Origin: a virus
Lineage: Duplodnaviria > Caudoviricetes
Length of the DNA: 64,000 nt
Strand: one strand, 5' to 3'
IMG/VR virus record: IMGVR_UViG_3300042453_002018
Coordinates: 1 to 64,000 of that record
Shown here: positions 47,371-64,000 of the stretch, one piece after another
Position numbering within the stretch: position 1 is the first letter of the stretch
Layout of the letters: the number at the start of each line of letters is the position of its first letter
Notes under the pieces: generated by a model
Database searches by the model: none
What the model saw: only the letters and a program-made list of their open reading frames with translations
What the model was told of the DNA's origin: nothing
Made by a program: the position numbers and the translations under genes

Positions 47371-47398
47371 GTAAATGTGATGAGAAAGTGAGTAAGAA

Positions 47399-47671
47399 AT
47401 GGTTAAGAAAGTTGATAAGTTTGATTTGAGTGAAGCGTGTGGATGGATCGGTATGTTGTTGATTCATGCTGCTACTCTTCCTACTAGTTTGGGTGTGATT
47501 CTTGGATATAGCGATAAGTTACCACCTCTAAGTATGGTGTTGATGGTCTGGAGCGGTTTGTTTCTGTTTCTAGTTCGTGCATTAGGTCGTAATGATAAGT
47601 TATACATAATTAGTAACGCCGTTGGTTTCTTTTTCAATAGTATTCTGTTGGCTCTGATTGTGTTTAAATAA
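47399..47671 (+). CDS. three-TM membrane protein
   Basis: Three hydrophobic helices. Confidence 0.7.
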   Translation: MVKKVDKFDLSEACGWIGMLLIHAATLPTSLGVILGYSDKLPPLSMVLMVWSGLFLFLVRALGRNDKLYIISNAVGFFFNSILLALIVFK

Positions 47672-48364
47672 TGGAGAATGTGATGAATTACGGAATGTTT
47701 ACAGAGAATGGCAATCGTGTAATTGACGGGATTGTGATTGTTGCAAAAGAGTTTCATTATTCTTGGAATTGTGTAAGTGATATACTTACTAAAATTTCAG
47801 AGATAGAGGGCTTCGAAGAAGCAAATGATACTGCGGTTCGTGAGAGTGTATATTTGGCAATGGAGGGTGTGTGATGAATAACTTAGTGAATGTAGCGACA
47901 CAAAGAAAATGGGAATATCAGGCTTACGGTGGCTACAAAGATGAAATTGTAGATTCTGTAAGAGATTCACTTACTTTTAAACTTTCAGGTCCAGGTATGG
48001 TAATAGCAAGTTATCTGTCCGATGCACAAGAGTTGATTGCTGTAAACGATGGTGAGCGGGCTCGTCAATATATCAATATCGCAAAGATGTTGTTGATGGA
48101 ATTTGAATTAGGGTTTGAAAGCCGTGCTGCGGCATAAGATGGACCCGCTATTCATCGTAGCGGGTAACCGAGAAGAGTTTGACGATTATGTCATTCGCAA
48201 AAGAATGATGGGACATGATTATGATTTTAGATTTGTCTATAGTCCTGATGTACTGCGTGGCCTCAATACTATTCGTGGGTTCTACGTTGGTAGCTATCGA
48301 GAACGCCCCGACTGGTCTGAGATTGATACCGTTATCAAAGTGATAAAATCCCGCGGTGGATGAC

Positions 48365-48393
48365 TTGACAAAGTTTTCATTTGTTGATATACT
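48365..48393 (+). promoter_or_regulatory. sigma70-type early promoter
   Basis: TTGACA-17-TATACT, then TGGAGATT SD. Confidence 0.85.
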
Positions 48394-49455
48394 ATTATTT
48401 CTTGAGTTGATGTGGAGATTGTGATGATTACCCCGGATGTTGAAGATGTTTTGATTGCTGAACTGGCCCGTGCTATTGCTGAGGCTACCTTGACTGATTA
48501 TACTGAAGAAGAGTGTGAGGCTGCGCTTGATGAGATGTTTGCAGAACATCAAGCCTTGATGTATGCTGCACAATCGTGGGACAATGACGCGGTAGCATAT
48601 GGTGAGATGTAATGAAATTATGTAAAGATTGTAAATACTTTGCCGAAGCCTCTGATAAAGAGGCTTTTTGCTTACATGAACAAGCGGTAAAGTATGATGA
48701 TCCAGTCTATGGCAATCATAGTAAAAGAACTTGCATTGATATGCGATTAGGCGGTCCTGATCGTACCGCATTATGTGGAAAAGTTGGTAAGTTGTGGACT
48801 GCAAAGCCAGGCTTTTCAGTAGGATCATACAACCCACTATGAAATATTACACTATAGTTTATCCTGATGTGACTGAATCTGGTCAAGAATATGACCATTG
48901 GGAAACATTATCAGAAAAGGAAATACTGAATCAATATTGGATATATTGGTTCACGAAAATGATTCAAGCCAAACGCCCTGATTTTGAGTTGACATCCGAA
49001 AATTGTATCAATGACTGGTGTATTGTGCATTGGGCACAACGAAATTGCTGGCGTGAGATGAAAGACAATTATGAGTGATGTTGAAGATAATGTTGCCAAG
49101 AGCAAAGCGGCCATATTTGATTTGATTGAACATAATGAAATGTTGGACGAAGATGGTTATCCAACTGATGCTGCGTTGGATGTTATTCGATTATGGCATT
49201 ACTCTGATGCACGTGGTTGGTTCAAGTTTATTGAGAACTTATGGCACTTTCGTACTTTTGGTTGGAAAGAAACTGACGAGCCGCACGAATACAGAGATAA
49301 AATCGTACACAAATATTATATCTCAACCTGTGGCTGGTCAGGTAACGAGAGTATTATTCGGGCTATGCAACAAAATGAAAATATGTTGTGGACACTAAAC
49401 TGGGAACAATCACGCCGTGGTGGTCATTATATTTTTGAGTTGAGGGAGTTTAAGA

Positions 49456-49659
49456 ATGAATAAACGAATTGGAGAACTGGCAGAACAAGCTGCACTACTA
49501 GGTCCCGGTAGTAGAATTGGTAATGCCCATGAAGCCACAGAAAAGTTTGCCCAGTTGATTCTGAAAGAATGTATTACCATTTGTGAAGATGGTAAAGACA
49601 CACAAATGACATCCATAGGTGCTGCTGATAGAATACGAACGACATTCGGTATAAAATAA
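49456..49659 (+). CDS. MNERI...EKFA family small protein
   Basis: MNKRIGELAEQA...EKFAQLILKEC...FG. Confidence 0.7.
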   Translation: MNKRIGELAEQAALLGPGSRIGNAHEATEKFAQLILKECITICEDGKDTQMTSIGAADRIRTTFGIK

Positions 49660-50379
49660 ATACTGCTATGATTTGGTGATAATCCAATCAAAGCAGAAAA
49701 TGTCCGACGATACAGAAGACCCAAGAGAAAAACTTAAAAAGTTTAAACCCAAAAAGAAAAAACTAGTTGTACCACAAGAATTTCTAGATAGTGCGAAATC
49801 CTATGATGAAAAGCTTATGTTGGTAAGGCATCTAACGGAAAGAGAAAAAGGTCGTGTTTTATTGATTATCCGTAGTATGTTGTCTGATGCAATTAAGAAT
49901 AAAGGCAAAGTGAAGTGAAACAGTTATTGGAAATATTACCAAGACTATTGAGCGCGATGCCTGAAATAGTCAAGTATATTAAATATATTCCAATACTAAT
50001 GATACTGGCTGGCATAGGTTATGGTGTATATTATGCCACGCTACATTACAAAGATCCCTATATGTGCTATAATAATCAGTTGTATGCACAAAAGTCTATG
50101 TTTTCAAATGTGTATATTTTTATTGGTGATATCTGTGTAAGTGGAAATGAGAATGAAAATCAGCCTCCTGTTACGGAAAATTAATTGGGAATATGTGGTT
50201 CTGTATGCATTCTATGGGTGCTGTTTTCTCATAGCAGCCACAGCCTATCATACAATCCGTAGTCAGTTTCAAGCCGCAGAAGAAGCTTGTCAAAATCGCA
50301 ACGGTGTCCTGTTGCAAGAAAAACAAGGAAATTTCATCTGTATCAAACGCAAGTCCGTAATACCCATCGAAGAAACCTC

Positions 50380-50408
50380 TTGACAAACCTCAGCACTCCT
50401 GTGATAAT
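50380..50408 (+). promoter_or_regulatory. sigma70-type early promoter
   Basis: TTGACA-17-GATAAT, then TGTGATGA...TGGAGAT. Confidence 0.75.
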
Positions 50409-51173
50409 GATTCTGTGATGAATTGATTTGGAGATGCAAAATGTACAATAATCTAATGGCTGAAGTTGAGTATATTCGAACCGCACGTGGTTACGGTATT
50501 CTAGAGGCAATTGCTTTTATTCTAGAATATGAGGCTGAGTTTCCCTCTGAGGTACGCCGTGAGTTGCGCGATTTTATGGACGAGGGTGCGCGGATGTTTG
50601 CGCCGCGTGAAGAGTATGAACTGGTGAGTTCAGACGGTACTGTGATTGACACTTTTACGATGGAGGCTGTATGATCGGCGAATCTTTTCTTGACGGTAAA
50701 CGAATCGTCGGTATGTACATGGGTGAATATCCTGTATCAGGTATCGTGCGGTTGAGTCGTATAAAATATGGTGGTGGTATGTCTCATCATGTTACACTTA
50801 ATCGACCAATCAGCGTGTATGGTGCGGTACGTGATTCGGTTATTCTTGATGCAAAAGAGATAGCGGGAGTTTTATAATGTATGTTGCAAAAGACTTTGGC
50901 ACGGTGCGTATCGTGCATGACGGTAGCCCCTTTGATGTCCTGTATGATATTAAAGTTGAACGGCTAGTCAACGGTGAATGGAAATTCTATGACGGCTACA
51001 ATAGCTTGTCAAATGATTATGCATTCTCTGAAGCAAATAATGCTGCTGCCCGAGCGTTAAAATTGAATTAAACCAGTCAAAAATGCATAAAAAATGAAAT
51101 TTGACCACTTCTGGTACATAGGTTTTGTGCTATGCATTTGTATATGCCTGTACATATTTCACAAGACACCACT

Positions 51174-51365
51174 ATGACCGAACGAATTAAAGAGTTAGCA
51201 ATTGAGGCTGGATATCTTCCAGACTCATTCGGTGTAGGGCATTGGGATATGCCAGAGTGTAAGAAGTTTGCTGAGTTAATTGTAAAAGAGGTTGAGTCGT
51301 ATATTGAGGAAGCTGAGGGTGATATAGATTTAGTACAATTTCTTATTGACAGGTATTTGAAATGA
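51174..51365 (+). CDS. MNERI...EKFA family small protein
   Basis: MTERIKELAIEA...KKFAELIVKE. Confidence 0.7.
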   Translation: MTERIKELAIEAGYLPDSFGVGHWDMPECKKFAELIVKEVESYIEEAEGDIDLVQFLIDRYLK

Positions 51366-51634
51366 ACGAACGAATTCGAGAACTTTCTGAACAGGCTGAA
51401 AAATATGCTGATGATAACTTTAGAGGCGAGCCTACCTGGTCGGAAGCATTTGAGTTAAAATTTGCCGAGTTGATAATACAAGAATGTGCCGCTTGCTGTG
51501 GTTCACAAGCCGATAAGCGAAACATTCGAAAGCGTTTTGGACTTTCAGTTGAGTCCAATGTACAATACGAAGCACCACCAATTTACGGCTCAGTAACCAG
51601 CCAATACACCCGAGAGTATAATATACCAAAATGA
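51362..51634 (+). CDS. MNERI...EKFA family small protein
   Basis: MNERIRELSEQA...KFAELIIQEC. Confidence 0.7.
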   Translation: MNERIRELSEQAEKYADDNFRGEPTWSEAFELKFAELIIQECAACCGSQADKRNIRKRFGLSVESNVQYEAPPIYGSVTSQYTREYNIPK

Positions 51635-51849
51635 ACGAACGAATAAGAGAATTAGGCAGGCAGGTTGGATTCTACATGGAAAATATGCATCCTGGTGGTT
51701 TTCCTAATGAAAATTTATTGGCGATAGAAAAGTTTGCTGAGTTGATTATACAGGAATGTGCTAATCTTTTTCCGTTGACATTTACGGACGAACAGTACCA
51801 GCGTAGAATTGATAAGACTATACTAAAACATTTCGGAGTTGATCAATGA
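51631..51849 (+). CDS. MNERI...EKFA family small protein
   Basis: MNERIRELGRQ...EKFAELIIQEC...KHFGV. Confidence 0.7.
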   Translation: MNERIRELGRQVGFYMENMHPGGFPNENLLAIEKFAELIIQECANLFPLTFTDEQYQRRIDKTILKHFGVDQ

Positions 51850-52016
51850 ACGAAAATGATATAGTTTACCGATTGCGAAAACGAGCAGAGATTCGCCGTC
51901 AAATACCTGACCGCAAGTCTGTGCAAGAAAACAAGCCCGACAGGATAGCAGACCTGTTAGAAGAGGCTGCGAATGAAATAGACCGTCTGCGTGAATATAA
52001 GGACCTAACTAAATGA
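51846..52016 (+). CDS. small hypothetical protein
   Basis: Translated by eye: VYRLRKRAEIRRQI...ADLLEEAANEI; ATGA overlaps at both ends. Confidence 0.65.
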   Translation: MNENDIVYRLRKRAEIRRQIPDRKSVQENKPDRIADLLEEAANEIDRLREYKDLTK

Positions 52017-52427
52017 TGGATATTTTCGTACCCGTTCTCTGGATTTGTATTAATGCGAACTGTGAATTTATGCAGGCTGAACAACACTATACCAGAGAGT
52101 CCGAGTGTAAACAACAAATTGACAAGCAAAAAGTTAAGATTAAAAAACTAGCCAGAGAAGCCAGAAGTCAAGTTGATACCCTTGAGGGTACCTGTATTTC
52201 CGTATCTATTCGAAAGAGTATGATATGAATACAAAAGATGAAGATAAGTGTATCAAAGCGGTTCGTGATGGAATGAAAGAAGGTATTATACCCATGTCGC
52301 TGACACCCGAGATGGAAAAATTGTTTAGGCTGGTGTATCGGCTAGGGTATAAACAAAGCACGATTGACCGTATGGAAAAAGAACTGAAACCCGACTTAGG
52401 TTATAGCCGCGTGGGATTAGAAAACGC

Positions 52428-52676
52428 ATGAACACAACAACAGAAATTCTGACAATCCTTCAAGAAGAGGCTGCTGAGGTAATCCAGGTAGCATCCAAGA
52501 TACACCGCTTTGGACACCGCCCTGACAATATGAAAAAACTAGCAGAGGAACTAGGTGATCTCCAATGTATGATCGACCTGTGTATAGAACACCAGCTAGT
52601 TGATGAAGCGATGCTCCAGATATATGCAAAAGACAAGCGCCATAAACTCAAAACATGGAGTAATATACCTGTATGA
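52428..52676 (+). CDS. MazG-like NTP pyrophosphohydrolase
   Basis: LQEEAAEVIQ...EELGDL. Confidence 0.75.
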   Translation: MNTTTEILTILQEEAAEVIQVASKIHRFGHRPDNMKKLAEELGDLQCMIDLCIEHQLVDEAMLQIYAKDKRHKLKTWSNIPV

Positions 52677-52801
52677 GAGCGATACTTCTACTGCTACTCC
52701 TCACCAGCTGTACACCAAAAACTACAATGATCCGCGTATTGCCAGAAACACAAAATCTCAACCATTGTCTAAAGAACAACAAAATAGTCTGTAATTAAGG
52801 C

Positions 52802-52830
52802 TTGACAATTCTACCATTTCCAGCTATCAT
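52802..52830 (+). promoter_or_regulatory. sigma70-type early promoter
   Basis: TTGACA-17-TATCAT. Confidence 0.8.
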
Positions 52831-53228
52831 AATCCTGTAATGAATGAATAAGGAGTTAGTTATTATGAAAGTTGTGAATTCTTCGGTGTATCTAGATTCG
52901 GTTCGTGCATATTTGACAATGCCTAAAGATATAGGTTTTGACTATATGGAAACACTAGTCGAAGAAATTTCTGATGCTGAGTGTATAACATGGACTGAAG
53001 CTTATGAGTTTTTCGGTGCTATGTGTGACAAAGTTATAATGGAAAAGTGGTGATCAAAATGACCAAAGTCTTTATTGTTGTTGATATGTCAGAAGGTATG
53101 TCACCAGGGACAGTCCTGCGTGTATTTGCAAAGTATGATGATGCCCTAGTATATGGCGAAGATTTGCTGTTTGACGGTGTGGTGAACGAGTTTGACATAT
53201 ATGAGCGTGAGGTGTACTAAATGTGTGG

Positions 53229-53268
53229 GTGTGAAAAAGTGTGAAATTGTGTGAAATTGTGTGATGCA
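53229..53268. repeat. 10-bp tandem repeat GTGTGAAATT (4 copies, 2 degenerate)
   Basis: GTGTGAAAAA GTGTGAAATT GTGTGAAATT GTGTGATGCA. Confidence 0.8.
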
Positions 53269-53401
53269 AACGCACTAGTGATGGGATACCAAAAATGCGT
53301 GTATTTATGTGTGCCTAAATCCATCACCTAAGCGCCGATGATCCGCAGAGTCGTGCGAAAATAGCAACACACCGCGCCGCACACAAAACGCAAAATACCG
53401 C

Positions 53402-53430
53402 TTGACAATTGCCGCAATGCCAGTTACCAT
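53402..53430 (+). promoter_or_regulatory. sigma70-type early promoter
   Basis: TTGACA-17-TACCAT, then TGTGATGA...TGGAGATT. Confidence 0.75.
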
Positions 53431-54123
53431 TTGTCTGTGATGAGATGAATTGGAGATTGAGATGATTGCGATTTTTGTACTGTTTGCTGTGATTGCTGTG
53501 TGGGGTGTTCTGGCTGCTGCCCCTGGTGCTGTTACTACTCTAGGTTAATAAAATGGAAACGATTGAAATTGTGTTCTGTATAGCCGCTCTGGTGGGTGGT
53601 GTGTATATTGTCATTGATGCAATGATTGATAGAGGTGAACTGTAATGAGAACGAAAACTCTGGTACCTGGAATGAAAAATACTGATAATATCCGCATTCG
53701 GTTCTGTGATGCTGATATCTCTGTGTATATGACGGTAAAGCAAGCGTTGGAAGGGTTCGGTAAAGTGGCGCATAGTATAGCGGTGGAGTCTGCGTTGAAG
53801 GCTCTAGGCGCTGCCAGGCGTGATCCTGGTGCTGCTGGAGTGGCTGCTGTGGGTCTAGCAGGTAACTGGCATGGCGTGGCACTACAAGTTGATTACTACG
53901 CATAAGGAAAATTGTATGTTTACAGAAAAACAACTAGCCGCTGCTTACAAGAAATTCAAAGGTAAAGTCGTAGTTGCTGAAATGGAAAAACCCAGACCCT
54001 CTGAGAAAACTTTCCGAAATAACAAGTATTCCGTCTTTAACCGTGGACGTATGGCCAGTCAATTCGGAAAAGGTGGTACGTATTCCTTCGTCGAAAAAAT
54101 CTAATGATTACCGCAGAAAAAGC

Positions 54124-54152
54124 TTGACAGAATTCTGCGGTTTTTGTATAAT
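54124..54152 (+). promoter_or_regulatory. sigma70-type early promoter overlapping an inverted repeat
   Basis: TTGACA-17-TATAAT; ACCGCAGAA...TTCTGCGGT brackets the -35. Confidence 0.85.
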
Positions 54153-55060
54153 GCTTTTGTGCTGATGATATGGAGATTGTGATGTATACCTGTGATGGAA
54201 GAAAATTCAAGACGCTGAGAGCCGCTGTTGCGTATGCTACAAAAACATTCGTTAAGACGGGTGTTAAGACTTTTACCATTGAGCCTGTGGTGGTATTGAA
54301 CAAGACACCTGGTTATATTGCTTATCTTGCAAATGGGATGAAATTATGATTATCCGACGTGAAACGATTAATGAGATTGCTACTCTGAAGTACCTTGGCT
54401 ACCCTGTGTGGCGTATTGCAGAGTTGATGAAAATTCCTGTAGCAGATATTACTGCTGCGATTAAAGCATGGAGACTGTAATGAAATATGCACAAGCACTA
54501 TTTACTGATGCTGATGTAGCCGAAGCGACACATGGTATGGGTGCGACCGTACTGAAACCGCGTAAAGCAAAACGTACCGCAATGCGCGTAAAGTCCAGTA
54601 AGGGCTTTGTAAAAGGTACGAGTGGGTTTGCAATGGGATATCCGCGTAAGACGTTTGTATAAGTGAAAACCGACTTTTGTATAATGGGATATCCGAGCAA
54701 AAAATTTGACTAAAAATGACTAAAAAAACGACCTTTTCAAATACAGATATAGCAAGTGCAGTTGATGCATTTACCGCAAACTGCACCACCGTGACCAGAG
54801 TGATGCCTGGCACAAGCAAGCATGGAGTAATTACTGAGTTGGTGCTACCTGGTACCACTCCACGTGAGTACACACCTAAACTAATACCCGAAAAGGACTA
54901 CAATGGGCCAGATGAAAAATATAGTAATTGATATCCTAGAGATGTATCAGAGAGGGTATAGCATATATGAAATTGCAAACTACCACGAAATGCGGCAAGA
55001 GTCCGTTGTAAGTGTGATTGAGACTTACGGTGGATATGCGGCGGAAGGGCTGTTCTTTGC

Positions 55061-55089
55061 TTGACAAAGTGGTGCACCCATGATACACT
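55061..55089 (+). promoter_or_regulatory. sigma70-type promoter upstream of candidate ncRNA
   Basis: TTGACA-17-TACACT. Confidence 0.75.
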
Positions 55090-55094
55090 AGAGA

Positions 55095-55236
55095 GGTGCT
55101 ACCGGGCAGTCTAAGTCGATAATTGCGCGTCACGTTACTTGCGCTCTAGTGTGGCAAAAGCTACAATCAAAGGAACATGCTATTCGGAAGCAACCTTATC
55201 GAACGAAAAGTCGAATTGCTCTATTCGGTCGCACCA
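55095..55236 (+). ncRNA. candidate rod-shaped structured RNA (~140 nt)
   Basis: Nested complementarity of 5' and 3' halves, own promoter, T run downstream. Confidence 0.5.
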
Positions 55237-55720
55237 AAATTTTTTTTCTGGCCAAAAACTGCACAATACTATGCCTGTCGTATACAACACACCTCTGATG
55301 GACACCGCGGCTGCACCAGCTGCTTCGGAAGTAAAGCCTGCTGATTCGCTGGATGCAAATGAGGTTATCGTACCAGCTCCCGCACTTATCAGCACGACAC
55401 CGAAGTTAGAAATCTTCGAAGGCTTTCCAGACATAAAGATTCCATCACTAGAGCATGGAAATGGTGATGCAAGTTTCGGCACAACACTCATTGCAATTCT
55501 GATATGTTTGTGGATTGCAAAGTTGATTTTGGGGCTGATACCGCGGTTTCTGCTGATTGGTATCGGAATTGCAATACTGTACACATTCATGCAATGATTC
55601 TCATATTCTATATTCTTGTCTTTTTAGCAATCAATCTGTGCATCACGGTACTGCTGCGACACATTGGCGGTAACGATGGATGGATGGAGTGGTATCGGAG
55701 AAAATCGCTTAGGGAACCTC

Positions 55721-55749
55721 TTGACAAAGGTAATTGATTCGCTTATAAT
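55721..55749 (+). promoter_or_regulatory. sigma70-type early promoter
   Basis: TTGACA-17-TATAAT. Confidence 0.85.
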
Positions 55750-56296
55750 GAAGTCTGTTGAGAGTGAATGGAGAAAGAAATGAAAGCAATTATTCTTACG
55801 CAAGTTTATGAGAACTATGCGATCCGTGAAGACGGCACGGTTGGTAAGGGTGCAGATGCGTACTTCAAACCCAAGGGTGGCGATGAGTATGTGGTGCGGA
55901 ATGTGACCGAAGATCAGGCATTCGAAATTCTCGAAAGAGTCGCTGGTCAAATTGAGAAATCGAATGACTACTATCAAGAGTTTATTGTCGATGTAAAGAT
56001 TGTCGAGGATGACTTTCTGACTGAGTATGAGTTGAATCAGTTGGAATGGGAAGGTAAGATTGTTTATCCACCGAAAGAAATTGAACTGGAGTTTGCATGA
56101 TGGATGCTGCGGACTTTCTGGATCGCGCTGAAAGATATGCCGCGGCGCGTGGTGATGAGAACTGGTTCAAAGAAGTGTACACTCGGTATCGTGAGTGGTA
56201 CAATGTGTCGGACTCGGTATGGTGTGCGCTGACATGGCTGTACGATGAAGATTCAGCTCGGATGCTGAAATACAAATATTGTGATGCAAGAATATA

Positions 56297-56626
56297 ATGG
56301 AGAAGAAAATGGTAAATGCTGACTTGGCTACTGCGCTGATTGGTTATAAAGATAACATCGTCGCAAATTATGTGAAATGGTGTGAAGATGCTGGCATCGC
56401 TGATATTGGTAAGTTTGGTATTGAGTTTGAGCCAGGGTCGAAGTACGTGAAAGTCGTGAAAGTTTCCTCTGGTGGTTCCCGCTCGGTACACTCTTTTGTC
56501 GAGAAAGAAAATGGTGCGATTTGGAAAGCAGCCAGCTGGAAAGCACCTGCGAAAAACTTCATTCGCGGTAATGTGTATGATGCATCGTCGTATACCAATC
56601 GCCTTTCATGGACAGGTGTAGCATAA
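56297..56626 (+). CDS. conserved phage early hypothetical protein
   Basis: KYVKVV...SVHSFV...KAASWKAPAK...RGNV. Confidence 0.75.
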   Translation: MEKKMVNADLATALIGYKDNIVANYVKWCEDAGIADIGKFGIEFEPGSKYVKVVKVSSGGSRSVHSFVEKENGAIWKAASWKAPAKNFIRGNVYDASSYTNRLSWTGVA

Positions 56627-57248
56627 TGATTGAAACATTCACACGTAAATCAAAGTTTACGGATCTCAAGCCCTATTGCCATTTTACCACAGATGATACC
56701 GATTTTATGGAACTCTGTGAGTGGAACAATGGTGAAGGGTTTGATTTGATTATGGCTCTTGGTAAACGACTTCAAACATTTTCAATGACTTGGGGACAGT
56801 TTGAAGCACTCCAAGCACTAGCAGCCTATAGGGAATAATATGAACTATTCGTTTGTGGTAAAATGCACCGAGTGTGATGATGAACACTTGACATCCGAAG
56901 TGAAGTTTGATAATATAGAAGAAAACTTTTATGGAGAAGATGTGGCTTATTTTACCTGCCCTGTGACTGAAGCGGCTACACAAAGCCGCGTGTATCGCCT
57001 ATGAGAGAATTCAAGTGGGAACGATACGGTGACAAATACTATTACTACGATTCGCTGACTGGTAAGATTGTCGGTGCAGTCAACAAGATAGCACTCCAAG
57101 AAGTTTGGATTGCTTTGGTCTATACGGGTGAATACTCTTTTACGATTCAAGATGAAAAACATCTGGGTCAGTATATCAATATGGATTTCGCAAAACGTGC
57201 AGCCGAGTTCTTTTGGGAACGTGAGAGTCGCACACTATTGGAATAAAT

Positions 57249-57659: not shown

Positions 57660-58974
57660 TAATGTTTATCATTAATTTATTTTTTATAGTTATATTCTGG
57701 AACATGGCCACTATAGCCGCTGACGAAGGTCGTGTGGGTTGGGCATGGGTATATTTGATTTTGTCTGCACTAAATGGTGCAGCATTGTGTGCATCTATTT
57801 TTTAGGAGAAACGTATGAAAGAAGGAATTGTAGCGGGAATTGTATTTCTGTTGTTTTTTGCCATGATGTTTTCTGCAATGATCTATAGTGACACCATGAG
57901 AGTTCAATGCAGAGAAGCAGCAATCGCAAAAAATTATAGCGCAGTTGAAATTCAAGCAATCTGTCGCTGGTAAATAAGGAGAACAAAATGGCACAATGGA
58001 TTATTCACCCAAGTTGGAAGAAGTCGCTGATTGAACGCCAGTATTATCACAAAGGTGATAATACGTTTATGACAGAAACTGGATGGCGTTGGGGTAGTTT
58101 TGAAGTAGAAACTGAAGACGAAAACGTACCAAACATTACTGCTGGTGATAATCTGTGGGACTGCGGCTATTCTGTTGAATTACTTGAAACGACCGATGGT
58201 TGTTGGGAAAGTCATGATATGGATGATTGTGATGAAGAAACTCAACAAATGCTTGAGGAGTTTTTTGAAGAGGGCAATAGTGCATACGATTTGGAAGAAC
58301 GAGAAGATTGGGTGCAAGGTGATAGTGAGATGATCATTGATTGTGATCCTATCTTTGAACGTGTCGATGGTCCAAACGCTGGCAAACGCTATGATGTTGA
58401 TGGTAACGAAATCGTTGAAGGTCAGGAAAATTAATTATGGTCACTATTGTAAAGCATGAATGGCATCAAGTCGATGAACAGTATGCATTTGATCTGGATG
58501 AAGAAACACTTAGCAATATCTATCCTGACCTAGATGTCGGTGAAATTGTTTCTTTGATGGTGCGAATAGAAAATGGTGAAGTCTCAATTGAAGAAATTCT
58601 CGATGATGCATACAATAATGACGTAGAGATAGAATGGGATCACCAGTATTCGGACTGTTGGACTGCACGAAAAGGTGGCTATGATGTTACTTATGAGTTG
58701 GGTGATGAAGACAGTTGGGTAGCACCAGAGAAAGAACCAGAGCCTACTCACAAGTGTACAAAATGTAAGTGGACTGGTCAAAGTTATGATGCTGAATGGT
58801 CTTGGGAAGACAAAGAAGGCAATGAACTGGAAGATCCATTAAAGATTTGTCCATACTGTGAAAGTGATGTAGTATTGACTGAACATGGTATGCAAAAAGA
58901 AAAGAAAGAAGAAGAGTTACGTAAAAAATGGGAAGAAGAAAGTCAACGAGAGTTAGAAGAAGAAATAAGGAAAC

Positions 58975-59349
58975 ATGATGAGTAATTATGGTATACATTC
59001 AAATCGATTTCAGGGTGACTACAAACGTGTGTTAACGGTTTGTTCTGCTAACATGTTACGTAGCCCTACAATAGCACATATTCTTTCCGCAGACCCATAC
59101 AATTTCAATACTCGGTCAGCAGGTACAGAACCATATGCCTTGATTCCTGTTACTGAAGATTTGCTAATGTGGTGTGATGAGGTCGTGTGTGCTGATACTG
59201 AACACGCAATGTGGGTTCGCAACAAGATGATGGAGTGGATGCTAGACAAGCCTATCATTGATTTGCAGATTGATGATATCTATGAGTATCGCAATCCTGA
59301 ATTAATTGAACTTATCAAGGAGCGTTATGGACAACGAACTGCTGGATAA
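58975..59349 (+). CDS. low-molecular-weight protein tyrosine phosphatase-like protein
   Basis: VCSANMLRS (CX5R), SAGT. Confidence 0.85.
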   Translation: MMSNYGIHSNRFQGDYKRVLTVCSANMLRSPTIAHILSADPYNFNTRSAGTEPYALIPVTEDLLMWCDEVVCADTEHAMWVRNKMMEWMLDKPIIDLQIDDIYEYRNPELIELIKERYGQRTAG

Positions 59350-59562
59350 ACTAGCCCTGAGAACTGGCGGTAGTCTTTTCCCTGAAGTCTTTCAATATTA
59401 TCAAAAACAATATGTAATGCAACTGTTGTCAGAAATACATCAAGTGTTTCAAAAACAGCAATTTGACGGATATGCAATAGACTTCTGGGATGACATTGTA
59501 AAGCATTTCCAGCTTGACCATTATGAAATTGAAAAGTTGCATAAAAACAACAAAGAATCCGC

Positions 59563-59591
59563 TTGACAGATTACCACACTTCGGATATAAT
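59563..59591 (+). promoter_or_regulatory. sigma70-type early promoter
   Basis: TTGACA-17-TATAAT, then TGGAGATT SD. Confidence 0.85.
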
Positions 59592-59624
59592 GATTCATGT
59601 TGATTGATTACATGGAGATTTGTC

Positions 59625-60014
59625 ATGGCTTATGTTTCTCAAGAATTGAAGTCTAAGTTAGCCCCTAAGATTAAAGCGATTTGCAAAAAGCATGGCGTGA
59701 AGGCTAGCCTTGCGGTTCGCAATCATTCTACGCTGGTGCTGAATGTAAAATCTGGTAAAGTCGATTTTATCAGCGACTATGGTAATAGTCCTGAAACACG
59801 TGCCGATGCTGAGAAATTTGGAATTCAAGTAAATCCTTATCATTACAAAAGTCATTTTAATGGCGATGCGTATTTCTTTTTGTCCGAAGTGATTCCTGCG
59901 ATGAATGACGGTAATTGGGATAAGTCTGATATTCAAGTCGATTACTTTAATGTTGGTTGGTACATTGATGTAAATATCGGTAAGTGGAATAAACCTTACG
60001 TTTTGGAGGCTTAA
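59625..60014 (+). CDS. conserved phage early hypothetical protein
   Basis: MAYVSQE...DKSDIQVDYF...IGKWNKPY. Confidence 0.75.
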   Translation: MAYVSQELKSKLAPKIKAICKKHGVKASLAVRNHSTLVLNVKSGKVDFISDYGNSPETRADAEKFGIQVNPYHYKSHFNGDAYFFLSEVIPAMNDGNWDKSDIQVDYFNVGWYIDVNIGKWNKPYVLEA

Positions 60015-60015
60015 T

Positions 60016-60186
60016 ATGGATCAGATAGATAAAATTATGGCTTTTGAATCTGGTGAACTAGATTTTGATGCTACTGTCGAATTGTTTCAAGACTTGATTG
60101 ATTCTGGTCTAGCGTGGCAATTGCAAGGTTCGTATGGTCGTATGGCAAGTGCATTGATTGAGAATGGATATTGTGACCGATGGTAG
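60016..60186 (+). CDS. small hypothetical protein
   Basis: GGAGG SD; FQDLIDSGLAWQLQGSYGR. Confidence 0.7.
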   Translation: MDQIDKIMAFESGELDFDATVELFQDLIDSGLAWQLQGSYGRMASALIENGYCDRW

Positions 60187-60566
60187 GCAACGAAAAAATT
60201 GTAGCCAATCGAATTCGGACACCTGATGGTACGATTCTTGAATCAATGCATCGGCATGATTATGTAACTTATCTTGATGCAAATGGTAAAGAATATATGG
60301 TCGATGGTGGTCTAGACTATCTGCGCCGCAATGTACATGATGATGCACCGTATCAAGAATTATCGGTGTATGCTGATGACCTTCACATTGAAATCCGCAA
60401 TGTATTCAAGTGGGGTACACGTGGTAAAGACGGCAAACAACCTTTGACATATGTACCACTCAAAGACTTGACAACAGAACACATTGAAGCTATACTAGAT
60501 ACTCAATCACATATTCAAGAACACATTCGAAAAATATTTTTGAATGAATTGAGTTTTCGGGGTTAA
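60180..60566 (+). CDS. hypothetical protein
   Basis: SMHRHDY...VDGGLDYLRR, WGTRGKDG. Confidence 0.75.
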   Translation: MVGNEKIVANRIRTPDGTILESMHRHDYVTYLDANGKEYMVDGGLDYLRRNVHDDAPYQELSVYADDLHIEIRNVFKWGTRGKDGKQPLTYVPLKDLTTEHIEAILDTQSHIQEHIRKIFLNELSFRG

Positions 60567-60584
60567 AGTTTTATATATAGAGAT

Positions 60585-60680
60585 ATGAACAAAATTGTAC
60601 ACATTACGAAGGATTGCCAAGAGTATCGCACATTTAGCGATAATAACTCATGGGCACCCGCATCGGAGGTTTGTGTATAG
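60585..60680 (+). CDS. putative attenuator leader peptide (31 aa) upstream of tRNA cluster
   Basis: MNKIVHITKDCQEYRTFSDNNSWAPASEVCV*; 3' end complementary to the 5' arm of the terminator. Confidence 0.6.
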   Translation: MNKIVHITKDCQEYRTFSDNNSWAPASEVCV

Positions 60681-60706
60681 ATTGTAGTTTAGTTCAGACT
60701 GTATAC

Positions 60707-60745
60707 AAACCCCAAAGCCCACAAAGTTTTGGGGTTTTTTGTTTT
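60707..60745 (+). terminator. intrinsic terminator (attenuator) directly before tRNA-Pro
   Basis: AAACCCCAAAGC-ccacaaa-GTTTTGGGGTTT followed by TTTGTTTT. Confidence 0.85.
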
Positions 60746-60749
60746 ATAA

Positions 60750-60828
60750 CTGGGTGTATTGTCAGCCTGGTCAGACGGCTCGCCTTGGAAGTGAGAGGAC
60801 GCAGGTTCAAATCCTGCCACCCAGACCA
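60750..60828 (+). tRNA. tRNA-Pro(TGG)
   Basis: CTCGC-ctTGGaa-GTGAG, CCA. Confidence 0.92.
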
Positions 60829-60840
60829 AAAAAAAAGTAG

Positions 60841-60869
60841 TTGACAGAGTTTTGGTTGTTGTGTAGAAT
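60841..60869 (+). promoter_or_regulatory. sigma70-type promoter of tRNA operon
   Basis: A tract, TTGACA-17-TAGAAT. Confidence 0.85.
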
Positions 60870-60886
60870 GATGTTTGTTGATTGAT

Positions 60887-60898
60887 TGTTCTTTAAAA
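60887..60898 (+). promoter_or_regulatory. boxA-like antitermination site
   Basis: TGTTCTTTAAAA versus rrn boxA TGCTCTTTAACA. Confidence 0.7.
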
Positions 60899-60910
60899 AA
60901 TTTGTGACAT

Positions 60911-60985
60911 GCACCGTTCGTCTATCGGTTAGGACATTGCCCTTTCACGGCAGTAAGAGGAGTTCGATTCTCCTACGGTGTACCA
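60911..60985 (+). tRNA. tRNA-Glu(TTC)
   Basis: TTGCC-ctTTCac-GGCAG, CCA. Confidence 0.93.
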
Positions 60986-60995
60986 ATTATAGTAT

Positions 60996-61072
60996 GGGTG
61001 TGTAACTCAGTTGGTTAGAGTATCAGACTTTTAATCTGAGAGTCGTGAGTTCGAATCTCACCACACCTACCA
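60996..61072 (+). tRNA. tRNA-Lys(TTT)
   Basis: TCAGA-ctTTTaa-TCTGA, CCA. Confidence 0.95.
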
Positions 61073-61135
61073 TATTGAAGCACATTGGCTTGTAAAGCGG
61101 TGAAGTATTCGTAAAGTTAGTGTGTTTCAATATGG
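61070..61135 (+). repeat. CCATATTGAAG...TTCAATATGG hairpin element 1
   Basis: Long terminal inverted repeat shared with two other copies. Confidence 0.75.
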
Positions 61136-61210
61136 CACTTTAGTTCAGTTGGTCAGAACGCTGCCCTGTCACGGCAGAGGTCAGGGATTCGAATTCCCTA
61201 AGTGTCGCCA
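61134..61210 (+). tRNA. tRNA-Asp(GTC)
   Basis: CTGCC-ctGTCac-GGCAG, CCA. Confidence 0.93.
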
Positions 61211-61216
61211 GAATAT

Positions 61217-61292
61217 TGACCGAAACGCACAACGGTGTGCGGCCAGACTGTTAATCTGTGTGAGACAGGTTCGATCCCTGTTCGGTCAGCCA
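61217..61292 (+). tRNA. tRNA-Asn(GTT), atypical D arm
   Basis: CAGA-ctGTTaa-TCTG, TTCGA T loop, CCA. Confidence 0.8.
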
Positions 61293-61293
61293 A

Positions 61294-61478
61294 GTTCCGG
61301 TTACTACTTTCCTGAAAGTAGCGTGTAACGACGATAATTGTTCGGTGGCTATGGCACCGTTAGCGCAGTCGAATGCAGACAACATAGCAGCGTGGACACT
61401 ACGTAGCAAAGTGCTTTTAGTGTTCGGACAGGGAAACAACTCCAGCATAGGGGCGACCGTGGAAAGCGTGGCCTAAGC
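61294..61478 (+). ncRNA. candidate structured ncRNA within tRNA cluster
   Basis: GC-elevated non-coding stretch with several hairpins. Confidence 0.45.
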
Positions 61479-61604
61479 AATATTAAATTTGCAGTTTGTA
61501 AGCCATGGGCTTGATCATGCCTGAGTAACTATGTACACACACGGTAAGTCCAGCTGGCAATTCCGTTGAGCATAGCAAATAGTGCAGACTGCAATTCTAA
61601 TATT
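61479..61604 (+). ncRNA. candidate stem-closed ncRNA within tRNA cluster
   Basis: TTGCAGTTTGTA/TGCAGACTGCAA closing stem flanked by AATATT. Confidence 0.5.
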
Positions 61605-61606
61605 GT

Positions 61607-61680
61607 TGGGGATTGGTGAAATGGTATCACACTGGATTTTGATTCCAAGGTCGTAAGTTCGATTCTTACATCCCCTGCCA
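61607..61680 (+). tRNA. tRNA-Gln(TTG)
   Basis: TGGA-ttTTGat-TCCA, CCA. Confidence 0.9.
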
Positions 61681-61687
61681 GTATTAT

Positions 61688-61771
61688 GGGTAACGAGCAG
61701 CATTGGTGACTGCACCTGACTGTAAATCAGACGCTTCGGCATACTTGGTTCGACTCCGAGGTTACCCACCA
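61688..61771 (+). tRNA. tRNA-Tyr(GTA)
   Basis: CTGA-ctGTAaa-TCAG, variable arm, CCA. Confidence 0.92.
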
Positions 61772-61772
61772 A

Positions 61773-61848
61773 CGGTCTTTAGTAAAATGGATTATTACGG
61801 TGGGCTACGGACCCGCAGGTGGGAGTTCGATTCTCTCAAGACCGTCCA
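61773..61848 (+). tRNA. tRNA-Arg(ACG)
   Basis: GTGGG-ctACGga-CCCGC, CCA. Confidence 0.9.
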
Positions 61849-61922
61849 TATTGAAGTGTACTCTTTGAGGTCTTGGTCGTTACCAGCGTAGCAAAAACGG
61901 CGACAGAGTACACTTCAATGTG
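61846..61922 (+). repeat. CCATATTGAAG...TTCAATGTG hairpin element 2
   Basis: CATATTGAAGTGTACTCT/AGAGTACACTTCAATGTG stem. Confidence 0.8.
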
Positions 61923-61927
61923 AGAGT

Positions 61928-62024
61928 CCATATTGAAGTGTTGTTTAGGGTGGCATGTAAAAGTTTAACAAGACTTTGAGGGCTGGAATTCCCGATCTGT
62001 GAACAGCAGAACACTTCAATATGG
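61928..62024 (+). repeat. CCATATTGAAG...CTTCAATATGG hairpin element 3
   Basis: CCATATTGAAGTGTT/AACACTTCAATATGG perfect 15-bp stem. Confidence 0.8.
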
Positions 62025-62098
62025 GGGATTGGTGCTAATTGGGAACACATGTGCTTTGCAAGCATGAGTAAGCAGTTCGAATCTGCTATCCTCCACCA
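62023..62098 (+). tRNA. tRNA-Ala(TGC)
   Basis: TGTGC-ttTGCaa-GCATG, G3:U70, CCA. Confidence 0.9.
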
Positions 62099-62108
62099 AA
62101 GTTTTATT

Positions 62109-62184
62109 GCCGATTTAGCTCATCTGGTAGAGCAGGCGCCTTGTAAGCGTCAGGTGGTGGGTTCAAGTCCTGCAATCGGCACCA
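62109..62184 (+). tRNA. tRNA-Thr(TGT)
   Basis: GGCGC-ctTGTaa-GCGTC, CCA. Confidence 0.94.
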
Positions 62185-62190
62185 GACTAT

Positions 62191-62266
62191 CGCAGAGTAT
62201 GGAAGTGGTCATCCGCTTGGTCTCATAAGCCGAGAATCGCAGGTTCGAATCCTGCCTCTGCAACCA
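62191..62266 (+). tRNA. initiator-type tRNA-fMet(CAT)
   Basis: C1:A72 mismatch, ctCATaa loop, CCA. Confidence 0.85.
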
Positions 62267-62279
62267 TTATAGGTGAATC

Positions 62280-62747
62280 ATGAAAAAAGAAATTGATGTG
62301 AACGAAGTGGCTGCATTTCTTGATACGTGTGGTCCTGATACGAAAGTTTATATTGGTGCTGATTCTGAGCGTTTTCAAGTAAACGGTGAATGGTATGCTG
62401 ATTACATTCTTGCTGTTGTTGTTCATATCGATGGTCGTCATGGTTGCAAGATATTTGGTGCAGTCCAGCGTGAGCGTGATTTTGAACAAAAGAAAAATCG
62501 TCCACGTTTTCGTTTGATGAATGAAGTATACAAAGTAGCTGATTTATATTTGAAATTGTATGAAGCAATACCACATGATATTCAAGTGCATTTAGATATT
62601 AATCCAAGTGAGATGCATGGTAGTTCGTGCGTAGTAAACGAAGCAATTGGTTATATCAAAGGTACTTGTAATGTCGTACCATTGATCAAGCCAAAAGCTT
62701 TTGCTGCAAGTTATGCAGCCGATAGATTTAAAAGTTTAGTAGCGTAA
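62280..62747 (+). CDS. RNase H-like YkuK family protein
   Basis: VYIGADS, RLMNEV, VHLDIN, ASYAAD. Confidence 0.8.
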   Translation: MKKEIDVNEVAAFLDTCGPDTKVYIGADSERFQVNGEWYADYILAVVVHIDGRHGCKIFGAVQRERDFEQKKNRPRFRLMNEVYKVADLYLKLYEAIPHDIQVHLDINPSEMHGSSCVVNEAIGYIKGTCNVVPLIKPKAFAASYAADRFKSLVA

Positions 62748-62748
62748 T

Positions 62749-62822
62749 CTCGGTGTAGTTTAATGGCAGAACCACGGTCTCCAAAACCGTATGTGGGAGT
62801 TCGATTCTCTCCACCGAGGCCA
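62749..62822 (+). tRNA. tRNA-Trp(CCA)
   Basis: ACGGT-ctCCAaa-ACCGT, CCA. Confidence 0.93.
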
Positions 62823-62824
62823 AT

Positions 62825-62899
62825 GGTGTCTATGGTGTAGTGGTAGCATTACTCTCTGTGAAAGAGTAGGTACGGGGTCGGTACCCGTTAGACACCCCA
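62825..62899 (+). tRNA. tRNA-His(GTG), atypical T loop
   Basis: G-1:C73, ACTCT-ctGTGaa-AGAGT, T loop GTCGGTA, CCA. Confidence 0.85.
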
Positions 62900-62903
62900 A
62901 TTT

Positions 62904-62977
62904 TGTCCTGTAGTTAAATGGTATAACTGTCGATTGATAATCGACCATTACAAGTTCAATTCTTGTCGGGACAACCA
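62904..62977 (+). tRNA. tRNA-Ile(GAT)
   Basis: GTCGA-ttGATaa-TCGAC, CCA. Confidence 0.9.
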
Positions 62978-62979
62978 AT

Positions 62980-63054
62980 GGTAGTGTAGCATAACGGTAG
63001 TGCGCCACCTTCATACGGTGTCAGGTGTAAGTTCGAATCTTACCACTACTACCA
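62980..63054 (+). tRNA. tRNA-Met(CAT), elongator
   Basis: CACC-ttCATac-GGTG, CCA. Confidence 0.88.
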
Positions 63055-63055
63055 T

Positions 63056-63131
63056 GCGCTGGTGACGGAACGGTATACGTGTTGGTCTTAGAAACCAAAT
63101 TTTGAGAGTTCGAATCTCTCCTAGCGCACCA
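63056..63131 (+). tRNA. tRNA-Leu(TAG) with short variable loop
   Basis: TTGGT-ctTAGaa-ACCAA, 5-nt variable loop, A73, CCA. Confidence 0.85.
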
Positions 63132-63155
63132 TATAAGTATCGCGTGTGAGGCTGT

Positions 63156-63230
63156 GCATCGTTAGTTCAGCGGTAGAATCCCTGCCTTACAAGCAGGTTG
63201 TCGGTGGTTCGAATCCATCACGATGCACCA
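63156..63230 (+). tRNA. tRNA-Val(TAC)
   Basis: CCTGC-ctTACaa-GCAGG, CCA. Confidence 0.94.
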
Positions 63231-63235
63231 ATTAT

Positions 63236-63313
63236 GCAACGGTGGCAGAGTGGCCCAATGCAAGAGTCTGCAAAACTCTAAAACCGTCGGTTCAAATCCG
63301 ACCCGTTGCTCCA
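63236..63313 (+). tRNA. tRNA-Cys(GCA)
   Basis: AGAGT-ctGCAaa-ACTCT, U73, CCA. Confidence 0.93.
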
Positions 63314-63318
63314 GTTAG

Positions 63319-63406
63319 GGAAGTGTGGATGAGTGGTTTAAATCAGCAGTCTTGAAAACTGCCGATCAGAAATGATCCGTGAGTTCGAATCTCACCGCTT
63401 CCGCCA
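63319..63406 (+). tRNA. tRNA-Ser(TGA)
   Basis: GCAGT-ctTGAaa-ACTGC, long variable arm, CCA. Confidence 0.94.
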
Positions 63407-63421
63407 TTTAAAGGAAAAATT

Positions 63422-63826
63422 ATGTTAGAATGTTTAATTGTTGGTGATAGCATCGGTGTTGGTGTGAGTCAAGTTCGTAGGGAGTGTGTTGCATATGTGA
63501 AGAGTGGTATCAATTCACATAATTGGAATAAAATCTATATGAATAAACTACAACCGACAAAAACTTTGATTATCAGTCTTGGTGCAAATGATTTAGGTAT
63601 CAACACAGAAGGAAATATTCGGTCATTACGAACAAATGCACAAGCACAAAAAGTTTTTTGGCTTTTACCGAGTCAAAAATTGAAGCCAAAACAAGTAGAA
63701 GCAGTAAAACAAGTCGCAGCAGAGTTTGGAGATGTAGTAATTTCTCGACCAGAGAGTGATATTAGTGCGGATGGTGTACATCCTACTGGAAAAGGTTACA
63801 AAAAACTTGCGGATCAGACACGGTAA
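63422..63826 (+). CDS. SGNH/GDSL hydrolase
   Basis: VGDSI, G, LGAND, DGVHP. Confidence 0.88.
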   Translation: MLECLIVGDSIGVGVSQVRRECVAYVKSGINSHNWNKIYMNKLQPTKTLIISLGANDLGINTEGNIRSLRTNAQAQKVFWLLPSQKLKPKQVEAVKQVAAEFGDVVISRPESDISADGVHPTGKGYKKLADQTR

Positions 63827-63913
63827 GTTGGATGAGAGGCTTAAATCAGCGGTTTGCTAAACCGTCGAGCGTAGAAATACGTTCCGTGGGTTCAAATCCC
63901 ACACTTACCGCCA
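63822..63913 (+). tRNA. tRNA-Ser(GCT)
   Basis: GCGGT-ttGCTaa-ACCGT, long variable arm, CCA; overlaps SGNH stop codon. Confidence 0.93.
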
Positions 63914-63919
63914 TTATAA

Positions 63920-63948
63920 TTGACAAAATTTGAGTTTTCTGACATAAT
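63920..63948 (+). promoter_or_regulatory. sigma70-type promoter for an ORF running off the window (ATG63959)
   Basis: TTGACA-17-CATAAT. Confidence 0.7.
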
Positions 63949-64000
63949 AGAGTCTATCATGAGTACGAAAAACACGAAAAAATTGCAAAAGCCGCGAAAT

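Follow-up and report, generated by a model that had tools for sequence, protein, structure and literature searches.

Leader-peptide attenuators are known from enterobacteria, where they control trp, his, leu, thr, ilvGMEDA, pheA and pheST, and the classical ones need codon runs for their sensitivity. Some of them are multivalent, the thr leader sensing Thr and Ile and the ilvGMEDA leader sensing Leu, Val and Ile. At pyrBI and pyrE, a closely following ribosome prevents the formation of the terminator hairpin and the signal is a UTP-dependent pausing, T-box riboswitches bind one uncharged tRNA directly without any open reading frame (ORF), and toiL of E. coli has been linked to Rho. To our knowledge, the control of phage tRNA arrays is hardly known. 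Two reports discuss such arrays as a way to offset the loss of host tRNAs and to resist defences that cleave tRNA (PMC10264068, PMC11555353). Here, we analyzed a stretch of 64,000 nucleotides from an uncultured lake-water phage (the window; positions 1 to 64,000 of IMG/VR record IMGVR_UViG_3300042453_002018), in which a 31-codon leader ORF at 60585-60680 stands at the head of a tRNA array. On balance, and by a modest degree of confidence, the sequence and folding models lead us to favour a ribosome-dependent leader-peptide transcription attenuator whose leader would sample the whole tRNA pool.

The phage leader resembles the trp/his type by an ORF in the leader transcript, predicted overlapping 1:2, 2:3 and 3:4 pairings, an ORF end located at region 2 and a dedicated promoter. 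Unlike this type, it has no codon run for a single amino acid, each residue being present one to three times and most members containing all 20; moreover, phage tRNAs lie downstream, there is neither a Shine-Dalgarno sequence nor an Rfam leader match, and a further promoter follows the first tRNA(s). With the multivalent attenuators it would share the use of one leader for more than one amino acid, but those sense two or three through clustered codons whereas the phage leader would sense 19-20 through single spread codons. As at pyrBI and pyrE, the distance between ribosome and polymerase would be sensed rather than a cognate amino acid, with the difference that a ribosome keeping up would favour termination in the phage leader. 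Terminator read-through tied to the state of tRNA would be common to T-box riboswitches and to this element, which, unlike them, has an ORF and no T-box match in 58000-64000. The toiL upstream ORF of E. coli topAI-yjhQ is reported to respond to ribosome-targeting antibiotics and to act as a general stalling sensor (PMC12121999). The likeness lies in a short ORF that is not tied to one metabolite; however, toiL belongs to a chromosomal toxin-antitoxin locus, for which the available part of the same report describes neither a terminator/antiterminator pair nor an all-amino-acid composition (PMC12121999).

Anatomy of the leader at the head of the tRNA array

All the features of the element lie on the + strand. 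A sigma-70-type promoter, TTGACA-17-TATACT (60468-60496, 11/12), is located within the 3' part of a 128-aa gene, with a predicted start near 60503, about 80 nt before the ATG of the leader. The leader ORF starts 18 nt past the stop of the 128-aa gene, has 31 codons followed by TAG and encodes the peptide MNKIVHITKDCQEYRTFSDNNSWAPASEVCV. An earlier note, made from the sequence alone, had proposed a pan-amino-acid attenuator here, and its description of the ORF, with 18 distinct amino acids (Gly and Leu absent) and 25 distinct codons, was reproduced. Within the ORF, region 1 (60597-60603, GTACACA, codons 5-7) is complementary to 60672-60678 and constitutes a candidate anti-antiterminator partner, and an internal hairpin (60624-60642, TATCGC-ACATTTA-GCGATA) covers the nearly invariant codons 14-20. 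Region 2 (60665-60680, GGAGGTTTGTGTATAG), the 5' arm of the putative antiterminator, corresponds to the last five codons and the stop. Its 3' arm is region 3 (60699-60713, CTGTATACAAACCCC), of which 60707-60713 doubles as the outer 5' arm of an intrinsic terminator (60707-60745). The terminator has a stem at 60707-60737 with 12 pairs, five of them G-C, a 7-nt loop and the T-run TTTTTTGTTTT. Four nt past the T-run begins tRNA-Pro(UGG) (60750-60828; Rfam tRNA, 39.9 bits), followed by 19 more tRNAs, which gives an array of 20 tRNAs in the window. These serve 18 amino acids, of which the leader peptide contains 17. This arrangement of terminator, tRNA-Pro and array was as previously reported.

The hairpin between 60668-60680 and 60699-60711 comprises 13 pairs, two of them G:U, in agreement with the earlier note, and turned out to be longer than proposed there. 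With A60667 bulged, G60665 and G60666 pair with C60713 and C60712, and all four C of the terminator 5' arm are sequestered. Therefore, the overlap between the two structures is the whole G-C core of the terminator 5' arm and not 2-5 nt. This extended 2:3 helix has a calculated free energy (dG) of -18.8 kcal/mol (z -4.3; 4/4 C paired).

Some further features of this transcript were recorded. The sequence TGGGC in codons 23-24 (60652-60657) is complementary to GCCCA of the terminator loop (60717-60721), a loop motif present in many, not all, relatives. The predicted 5' untranslated part contains a mini-ORF, ATG-AAT-TGA (60544-60552); comparable ATG-NNN-TGA triplets are found in relatives and may merely reflect the overlapping protein code. 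The leader ORF is also in frame with the 128-aa gene, separated from it by TAA and six codons (60564-60587); the shared frame is probably incidental, the spacing being different among relatives.

Conservation of the reading frame and of the position beside tRNAs

Homologues were collected from three sources. The upstream 128-aa protein led to 80 IMG/VR loci, only six of which contained the leader according to a nucleotide profile, a 17-nt pattern gave 11 true loci and two chance matches, and a peptide-profile scan of metagenome contigs added 30 more. The resulting set (n=42) contains 41 complete ORFs, one member (L121) being cut by the contig end. RNA and frame alignments were performed on 33 aligned sequences and composition was studied on 30 unique ORFs.

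The leader ORF is open in 41/41 complete homologues, with 29-31 codons, an ATG start, a TAG stop (TAA in three) and the same end position. Indels within the ORF are restricted to two events of 3 and 6 nt, and gaps that are not multiples of three occur in the 3' non-coding part. None of at least 67 substitution events created a stop codon (P about 0.03, or 0.10 on variable columns alone), and the two other reading frames carry stops in 30/33 and 33/33 sequences. Judged from these alignments, the frame conservation is real, yet by itself moderately significant. In this family of leaders, named type A hereafter, sixteen residues are invariant, among them Y14-N20, S22-A24 and V29-V31, and the core YRTFSDN.SW is nearly invariant. 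The peptide profile searched against 1.84 billion protein representatives returned one true match and no wider family; together with substitutions unlike those of a protein, this points to a regulatory ORF in a constrained RNA rather than to a protein family. A blastn search of 60000-61000 against public phage genomes gave matches confined to the tRNA-Pro part. Using tblastn, the 128-aa protein was detected in 15 public records, all below 60% identity; one of them, Vibrio phage Pontus, was inspected and has no similar leader, its tRNA-Pro being located in the middle of the array.

The promoter of the leader is conserved as well, with hexamers and spacing identical in 25/32 loci and a -10 ending 86-89 nt before the ATG. 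It is absent in 7/32, of which four have kept the 128-aa gene (L104, L106, L108, L109) and three have a different upstream gene (L110, L123, L114). The promoter letters are fixed in the 25 loci while neighbouring codons of the 128-aa gene vary synonymously. Even where the upstream gene differs (the three latter loci), the leader adjoins tRNAs, and the next downstream gene is a tRNA in all the loci with enough flank (26/30 in one count, 29/29 in another). In 23/29 loci this gene is a tRNA-Pro beginning 1-5 nt past the T-run without its own promoter, and in the window tRNA-Pro is the only gene lacking a promoter between itself and the terminator. At least three quite different versions of tRNA-Pro(UGG) were observed among relatives with near-identical leaders (window compared with L084, L090 and L095), as if swapped, and in L083 tRNA-Pro is found later in the array.

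Amino-acid and codon composition of the leaders

Taken alone, the leader of the window is not unusually diverse, whether in amino acids (18, P about 0.04) or in codons (25, P about 0.3). At least 18 distinct residues were found in 2.8% of the 31-residue segments taken from the long ORFs of the window, and in 4.9% of the cases when stop-free frames were drawn at random; at least 25 distinct codons were found in 30% of random frames (P = 0.51 given the peptide of the window). The relatives gave a different picture. All 20 amino acids are present in 18 of the 30 unique ORFs; seven others have 19, four have 18 and one has 17. The near-complete sampling of amino acids described in the earlier note is thus far more pronounced among the relatives than in the window itself. 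The ORFs have 22 to 31 distinct codons, most often 29, and in two of them no codon is repeated over the 31 positions. With a null built on the phage's own codon usage over 31 codons, the probability of all 20 amino acids is 3.3e-4, that of at least 29 codons 2e-4 and that of 31 codons 2e-6. Nineteen distinct residues within the first 24 codons (null P = 1.25e-4) are reached by 10/30 ORFs. For a given peptide, most members tested had more distinct codons than expected under the synonymous null (P 0.001 to 0.22), and the window did not. The leaders use codons that are otherwise avoided by the phage, with a score similar to the codon adaptation index at the 5th percentile and a G+C content at third positions of 0.42-0.48 compared to 0.29 in long genes. 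The G+C content of the window is 38%, and the genome, described in the earlier note as AT-rich, is moderately so.

To what extent residues compensate for each other was addressed by column shuffling: the ORFs then had on average 18.97 distinct residues instead of 19.36 (P 0.0004), and the all-20 fraction fell from 0.57 to 0.28. Such a drop fits a compensation among residues, to which shared descent could contribute. Individual cases include Gln, which shifts among positions 10, 12 and 13, Leu4 lost with Leu27 gained, and Ala24 lost with Ala31 gained.

Two other leader types share the design but little of the peptide

A related complete phage genome (G001), with 24 tRNAs, lacks the type A core. 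Just before its first tRNA we found a 32-codon ORF, MNKILSTISKQHTPMTNWSEGYCARSFDGGFV, containing all 20 amino acids (null P 5e-4), whose stop codon lies within a 13-bp perfect arm and whose partner arm overlaps a terminator. This type B terminator is followed by tRNA-Ser, Ser and Cys without promoter, then by two promoters of 12/12. Scanning IMG/VR on the 3' RNA module alone gave at least 12 further matches followed by a tRNA, corresponding to six distinct elements, type B included. One of them, type D (L249), also has the antiterminator, with an ORF of 35 aa and 19 distinct residues (null P 0.02). The antiterminator is missing from type C (31 aa, 18 distinct residues, null P 0.04; seven copies among the matches listed), from L148 (28 aa, 15 distinct, P 0.5), from L206 (33 aa, 15 distinct, P 0.8) and from L197, in which no ORF ends at this place. 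High residue diversity goes with the antiterminator design, in a small sample of three types with it and three without. The peptides themselves have drifted: type A and type B are identical at 9 positions (z 2.3) and type A and type D at 6 (z 0.1). This near-complete drift of the peptide with retained amino-acid completeness is the strongest argument for a selection on composition itself.

In type D, tRNA-Glu follows the terminator with no other promoter within the 245 nt available, and a boxA-like sequence, GATCTTTAACAA, stands between the two. In type C (L151 and six near-identical loci), TTTATAAAC precedes the 31-codon ORF, which is followed by the terminator and tRNA-Gln; the stop sits in a separate hairpin without overlap of the terminator, and this type may represent a relative that has decayed or is wired differently. 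Further leader types were sought with arm-pair patterns, which returned known members and unrelated palindromes without tRNAs, and the exact type B pattern had no match besides type B itself.

The types also differ in their start region. A promoter, TTGACA-17-TAGAAT, ends 6 nt before the ATG in type D, where we infer a leaderless transcript. In the window, a mere A/T box stands before the ATG (60572-60580, + strand; TATATATAG in the window, TATAAATAA in one clade), ending 5 nt upstream of it and kept in 31/33 aligned sequences. The box may act in transcription, as a -10-like or late-promoter-like element from which a leaderless mRNA would start, or in translation, as an A/U-rich enhancer. A T4-type late promoter was considered and dropped, since enrichment gave no support: TATAAATA occurs once in the window compared to about four expected by chance, and ATATATAG once compared to about two.

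Predicted pairings and switching of the leader RNA

Folded alone in the 33 homologues, the 2:3 helix had free energies of -13.7 to -19.8 kcal/mol (z -2.7 to -5.3). Its overlap with the terminator (7 nt including the C-run) was present in 33/33, with at least three C paired in 31/33, and region 3 is kept in non-coding sequence while the hairpin loop diverges. In the alignment, 97.2% of the cells of the terminator are paired, with compensatory changes at three pairs, and 96.5% of those of the 1:2 helix, with one compensated pair (AU:29, GC:2, GU:2). The 2:3 helix, whose register is shifted by a bulge in one clade, is 85.9% paired as aligned and has two compensated pairs; its pair 112-142 is UA:19, UG:4 and CG:2. 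In two members (L122 and L124), a three-way change (region 1 A->G, region 2 T->C, region 3 A->G) preserves both 1:2 and 2:3, and the wobble intermediates of this change were found in other members. Thus both the ORF and the pairing expected by the earlier note in homologous loci are there, the hairpin being kept with some covariation. The internal hairpin is 99.5% paired with hardly any variation, hence it provides no covariation evidence; it is a possible pause or structural element.

The plain minimum free energy (MFE) structure of 60567-60749 contained a 1:2-type pairing and the full terminator, the 2:3 hairpin not being part of it (z -4.7). When folding was staged on a growing transcript, 1:2 formed in 31/33 sequences, then 2:3 in 32/33 once the C-run was made, and the last stage combined 1:2 and the terminator in 33/33. 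Masking the stop codon as by a ribosome gave a terminator probability of 1.00 in 33/33, whereas a ribosome mask in the middle of the ORF lowered it to 0.4 or less in just about half of the homologues. In these models, the switching by ribosome position that the earlier note expected was clear with the ribosome at the stop and partial with a delayed one. A long-range pairing of 60574-60580 with 60699-60705, seen in the MFE structure, was discarded because the TATAAATA clade has not kept it. Applied to the whole transcript, RNAalifold returned the internal hairpin, an invariant G:U-rich helix (CATGGGC with GTTTGTG) and the terminator, and not 2:3, for which it is uninformative because the 3' arm is misaligned between clades. 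A search with Rfam cmscan (E up to 1, 58000-64000) detected the tRNAs and weak chance hits elsewhere, with none in 60503-60749 and no T-box.

Other features of the window

The viral record of 82 kb has an estimated completeness of about 50%, and matches to PHROGs in the window include a family B DNA polymerase, a DnaB-like helicase and a ribonucleotide reductase. A dense run of TTGACA-17-TATAAT promoters extends over 43955-56916 (+ strand), four at 12/12 and several at 11/12, and resembles an early region with many small transcription units. A second tRNA cluster, at 45927, has ordinary ORFs upstream of it and lacks a leader. Convincing intrinsic terminators in the window were too few to give a control baseline. 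Within the tRNA array, a 155-aa ORF (62280-62747) corresponds to PHROG 11311, of unknown function (E 4e-52); relatives have a tRNA-Gly(gcc) after the gap of this ORF and a tRNA-Phe(gaa) between His and Ile, both missing in the window. A boxA-like TTCTTTAA is located at 60887-60898, between the array promoter described below and tRNA-Glu. Finally, a 418-aa protein (25264-26517) matches phrog_353, a PHROG family with the label 'toxin', over residues 66-124 (E 2e-12) and is otherwise unannotated.

Discussion

The mechanism that we favour, at little better than an even level of confidence, would operate as follows. A short transcript containing the 31-codon ORF would start from the strong early-type promoter at 60468-60496. 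The last five codons and the stop form the 5' arm of 2:3, and the 3' arm holds the AAACCCC also needed by the terminator (3:4). A ribosome arriving at the end of the ORF before region 4 is made would occupy region 2, so that the terminator forms and transcription ends at 60745. A delay of the ribosome at any one of the first ~24 codons would leave the C-run held by 2:3, weakening the terminator and allowing read-through to tRNA-Pro and the array; with no ribosome, region 1 (codons 5-7) would pair with region 2 and termination would again be favoured. With nearly each amino acid present once or twice, mostly through different codons, translation would be timed over the whole aminoacyl-tRNA pool. 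What the sequences show is a conserved anatomy and an unusual composition; translation of the ORF, a race between ribosome and polymerase and a physiological trigger are what we infer from them. A more specific version, which we propose tentatively and regard as possible rather than probable, is that the leader acts as a translation speedometer reading almost each tRNA species once, the slow decoding of any codon raising the transcription of phage tRNAs. The slowdown could then result from starvation, from the decay of host tRNAs during infection or from tRNA cleavage by anticodon nucleases; the link that the earlier note drew to anticodon-nuclease defence is purely conjectural.

Several observations weigh against this attenuator. 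No Shine-Dalgarno sequence is visible before the leader ATG (upstream sequence AAAGTTTTATATATAGA), as the earlier note had remarked, an absence tempered by the presence of such a sequence in just 38/78 long ORFs of the window in a crude test. Six metatranscriptome runs contained a small share of the words searched, and contigs from four of them covered parts of tRNA-Pro and tRNA-Glu and none of the leader, a result that we count on the negative side, yet that is neither for nor against expression itself. The coding signature is weak, with 14, 16 and 20 variable columns at codon positions 1, 2 and 3, and a core of ten codons is nearly invariant including its third positions, so that constraint at the RNA level accounts for much of the conservation. 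No codon run for a single amino acid exists, each residue occurring at most three times in the consensus. Amino acids are missing in some leaders (G and L in the window; A, L and P in L123; K and L in L112). A co-variation between leader and array was tried and rejected, the amino-acid losses of leaders being unmatched by tRNA losses in arrays. In the window, Gly is missing from the leader and tRNA-Gly(gcc) from the array, but beyond it, at genome position 65129, there is a tRNA-Gly(tcc); conversely, the array lacks tRNA-Phe while the leader retains Phe, and four relatives without tRNA-Leu(tag) have leaders that retain Leu. The 3' module is common to types A, B and D, which are therefore related elements and not independent inventions.

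The folding results bring further reservations. With the ribosome mask in the middle of the ORF, the terminator probability stayed at about 1 in eight homologues (L082, L090, L093, L116, L124, L088, L091, L100), and the G-run mostly remained paired. Once region 1 was removed, the MFE structure was the antiterminator in 20/33 and the terminator in 13/33. The barrier for refolding from antiterminator to terminator was estimated at 2.8-5.3 kcal/mol, so low that the antiterminator cannot be a long-lived trap; differences of 2-4 kcal/mol are beyond what a nearest-neighbour model can decide. Shuffled upstream sequences often favoured the terminator too, the natural sequence being in the top 10% in 6/12 tested, and the specific 1:2 pairing is thus moderately supported. 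Overall, the modelled architecture is compatible with a switch in which the antiterminator is marginally competitive.

Control of the array is also less direct than the gating of a tRNA cluster announced in the earlier note, which was overstated. The second promoter that it had indicated at 60841 was recovered (60841-60869, + strand, TTGACA-17-TAGAAT, 11/12) and is predicted to drive tRNA-Glu and the following genes independently of the leader. A promoter scoring 10-12 of 12 is present before tRNA-Glu, past the terminator, in 29/29 loci, after tRNA-Pro in 23/29 and directly after the terminator in 6/29, where the element persists. With this own promoter, most of the array is transcribed regardless of the leader, and in the window tRNA-Pro alone strictly needs read-through. 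From this arrangement, the element would directly control one to three tRNAs, and would supply additional read-through for an array that is mostly under a promoter of its own.

An alternative is a conventional small early gene, or a small RNA with a dual function, that has a promoter of its own and ends at a standard terminator; the stop-codon hairpin would then merely stabilise the 3' end, and tRNA-Pro would be expressed by constitutive leakage of the terminator. We consider this explanation improbable. In its favour, the early region of the window is rich in units of a consensus promoter and a small ORF, the terminator state is preferred or equal in many homologues with a low barrier, the element is retained where a promoter directly follows it, and the near-invariant core YRTFSDN.SW could be a functional peptide or an RNA motif. 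It leaves unexplained all 20 amino acids in 18/30 unique ORFs and the diversity in the dissimilar types B and D, the constant extension of the hairpin over the C-run of the terminator, and a unit that stays beside the tRNA array despite changes of the upstream gene; the substitutions are also unlike those of a protein under purifying selection, and the single true match of the peptide profile gives no wider protein family.

If the open frame were incidental, the element would be an untranslated structured RNA, in the form of a terminator with an accessory hairpin, of a processing signal, or of an insulator that separates the early operon from the promoter of the array. The absent Shine-Dalgarno sequence, the nucleotide-level conservation with its small third-position excess and the strongly stable fold (z -4.7) suit such an RNA, as does an ORF retention that is only moderately significant alone (P between 0.03 and 0.10, with two in-frame indel events in addition). 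Nevertheless, the complete set of amino acids and the near-maximal codon diversity are specific to the frame (P about 3e-4), the diversity recurs in two types with different nucleotides upstream of region 2, the positions of ATG and stop are invariant in 41/41, and Rfam families gave no match to the region, which makes this explanation quite unlikely in our view. The conserved core could alternatively act as a peptide in the manner of TnaC or SecM, by a sequence-specific nascent arrest or as a trans-acting leader peptide; ribosome stalling, or the binding of a target, would then depend on the core and not on the supply of codons. The sixteen invariant type A residues would lie in the exit tunnel with a ribosome at the stop, if the geometry is as we assume; the core is absent from types B and D despite the same RNA design, is invariant at synonymous sites too, which indicates an RNA constraint, and belongs to no wider peptide family, and we give this possibility very little weight.

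In the literature accessible to our searches, we found no description of a leader-peptide attenuator before tRNA genes nor of an all-amino-acid leader. The mechanism class is known; its sensing logic, its target genes and its conservation by composition are new. If the attenuator is confirmed, it would extend textbook attenuation: in place of a single amino acid that controls a single biosynthetic operon, the signal would be the decoding capacity as a whole and the response would come from tRNA genes, and selection would act on which amino acids a peptide contains and not on their order. The leader cassette could serve as a compact reporter of the global translation speed. Read as a speedometer, the element would be a viral feedback loop in which the aminoacyl-tRNA pool is sensed and tRNA is supplied, conserved by composition over at least three leader types.

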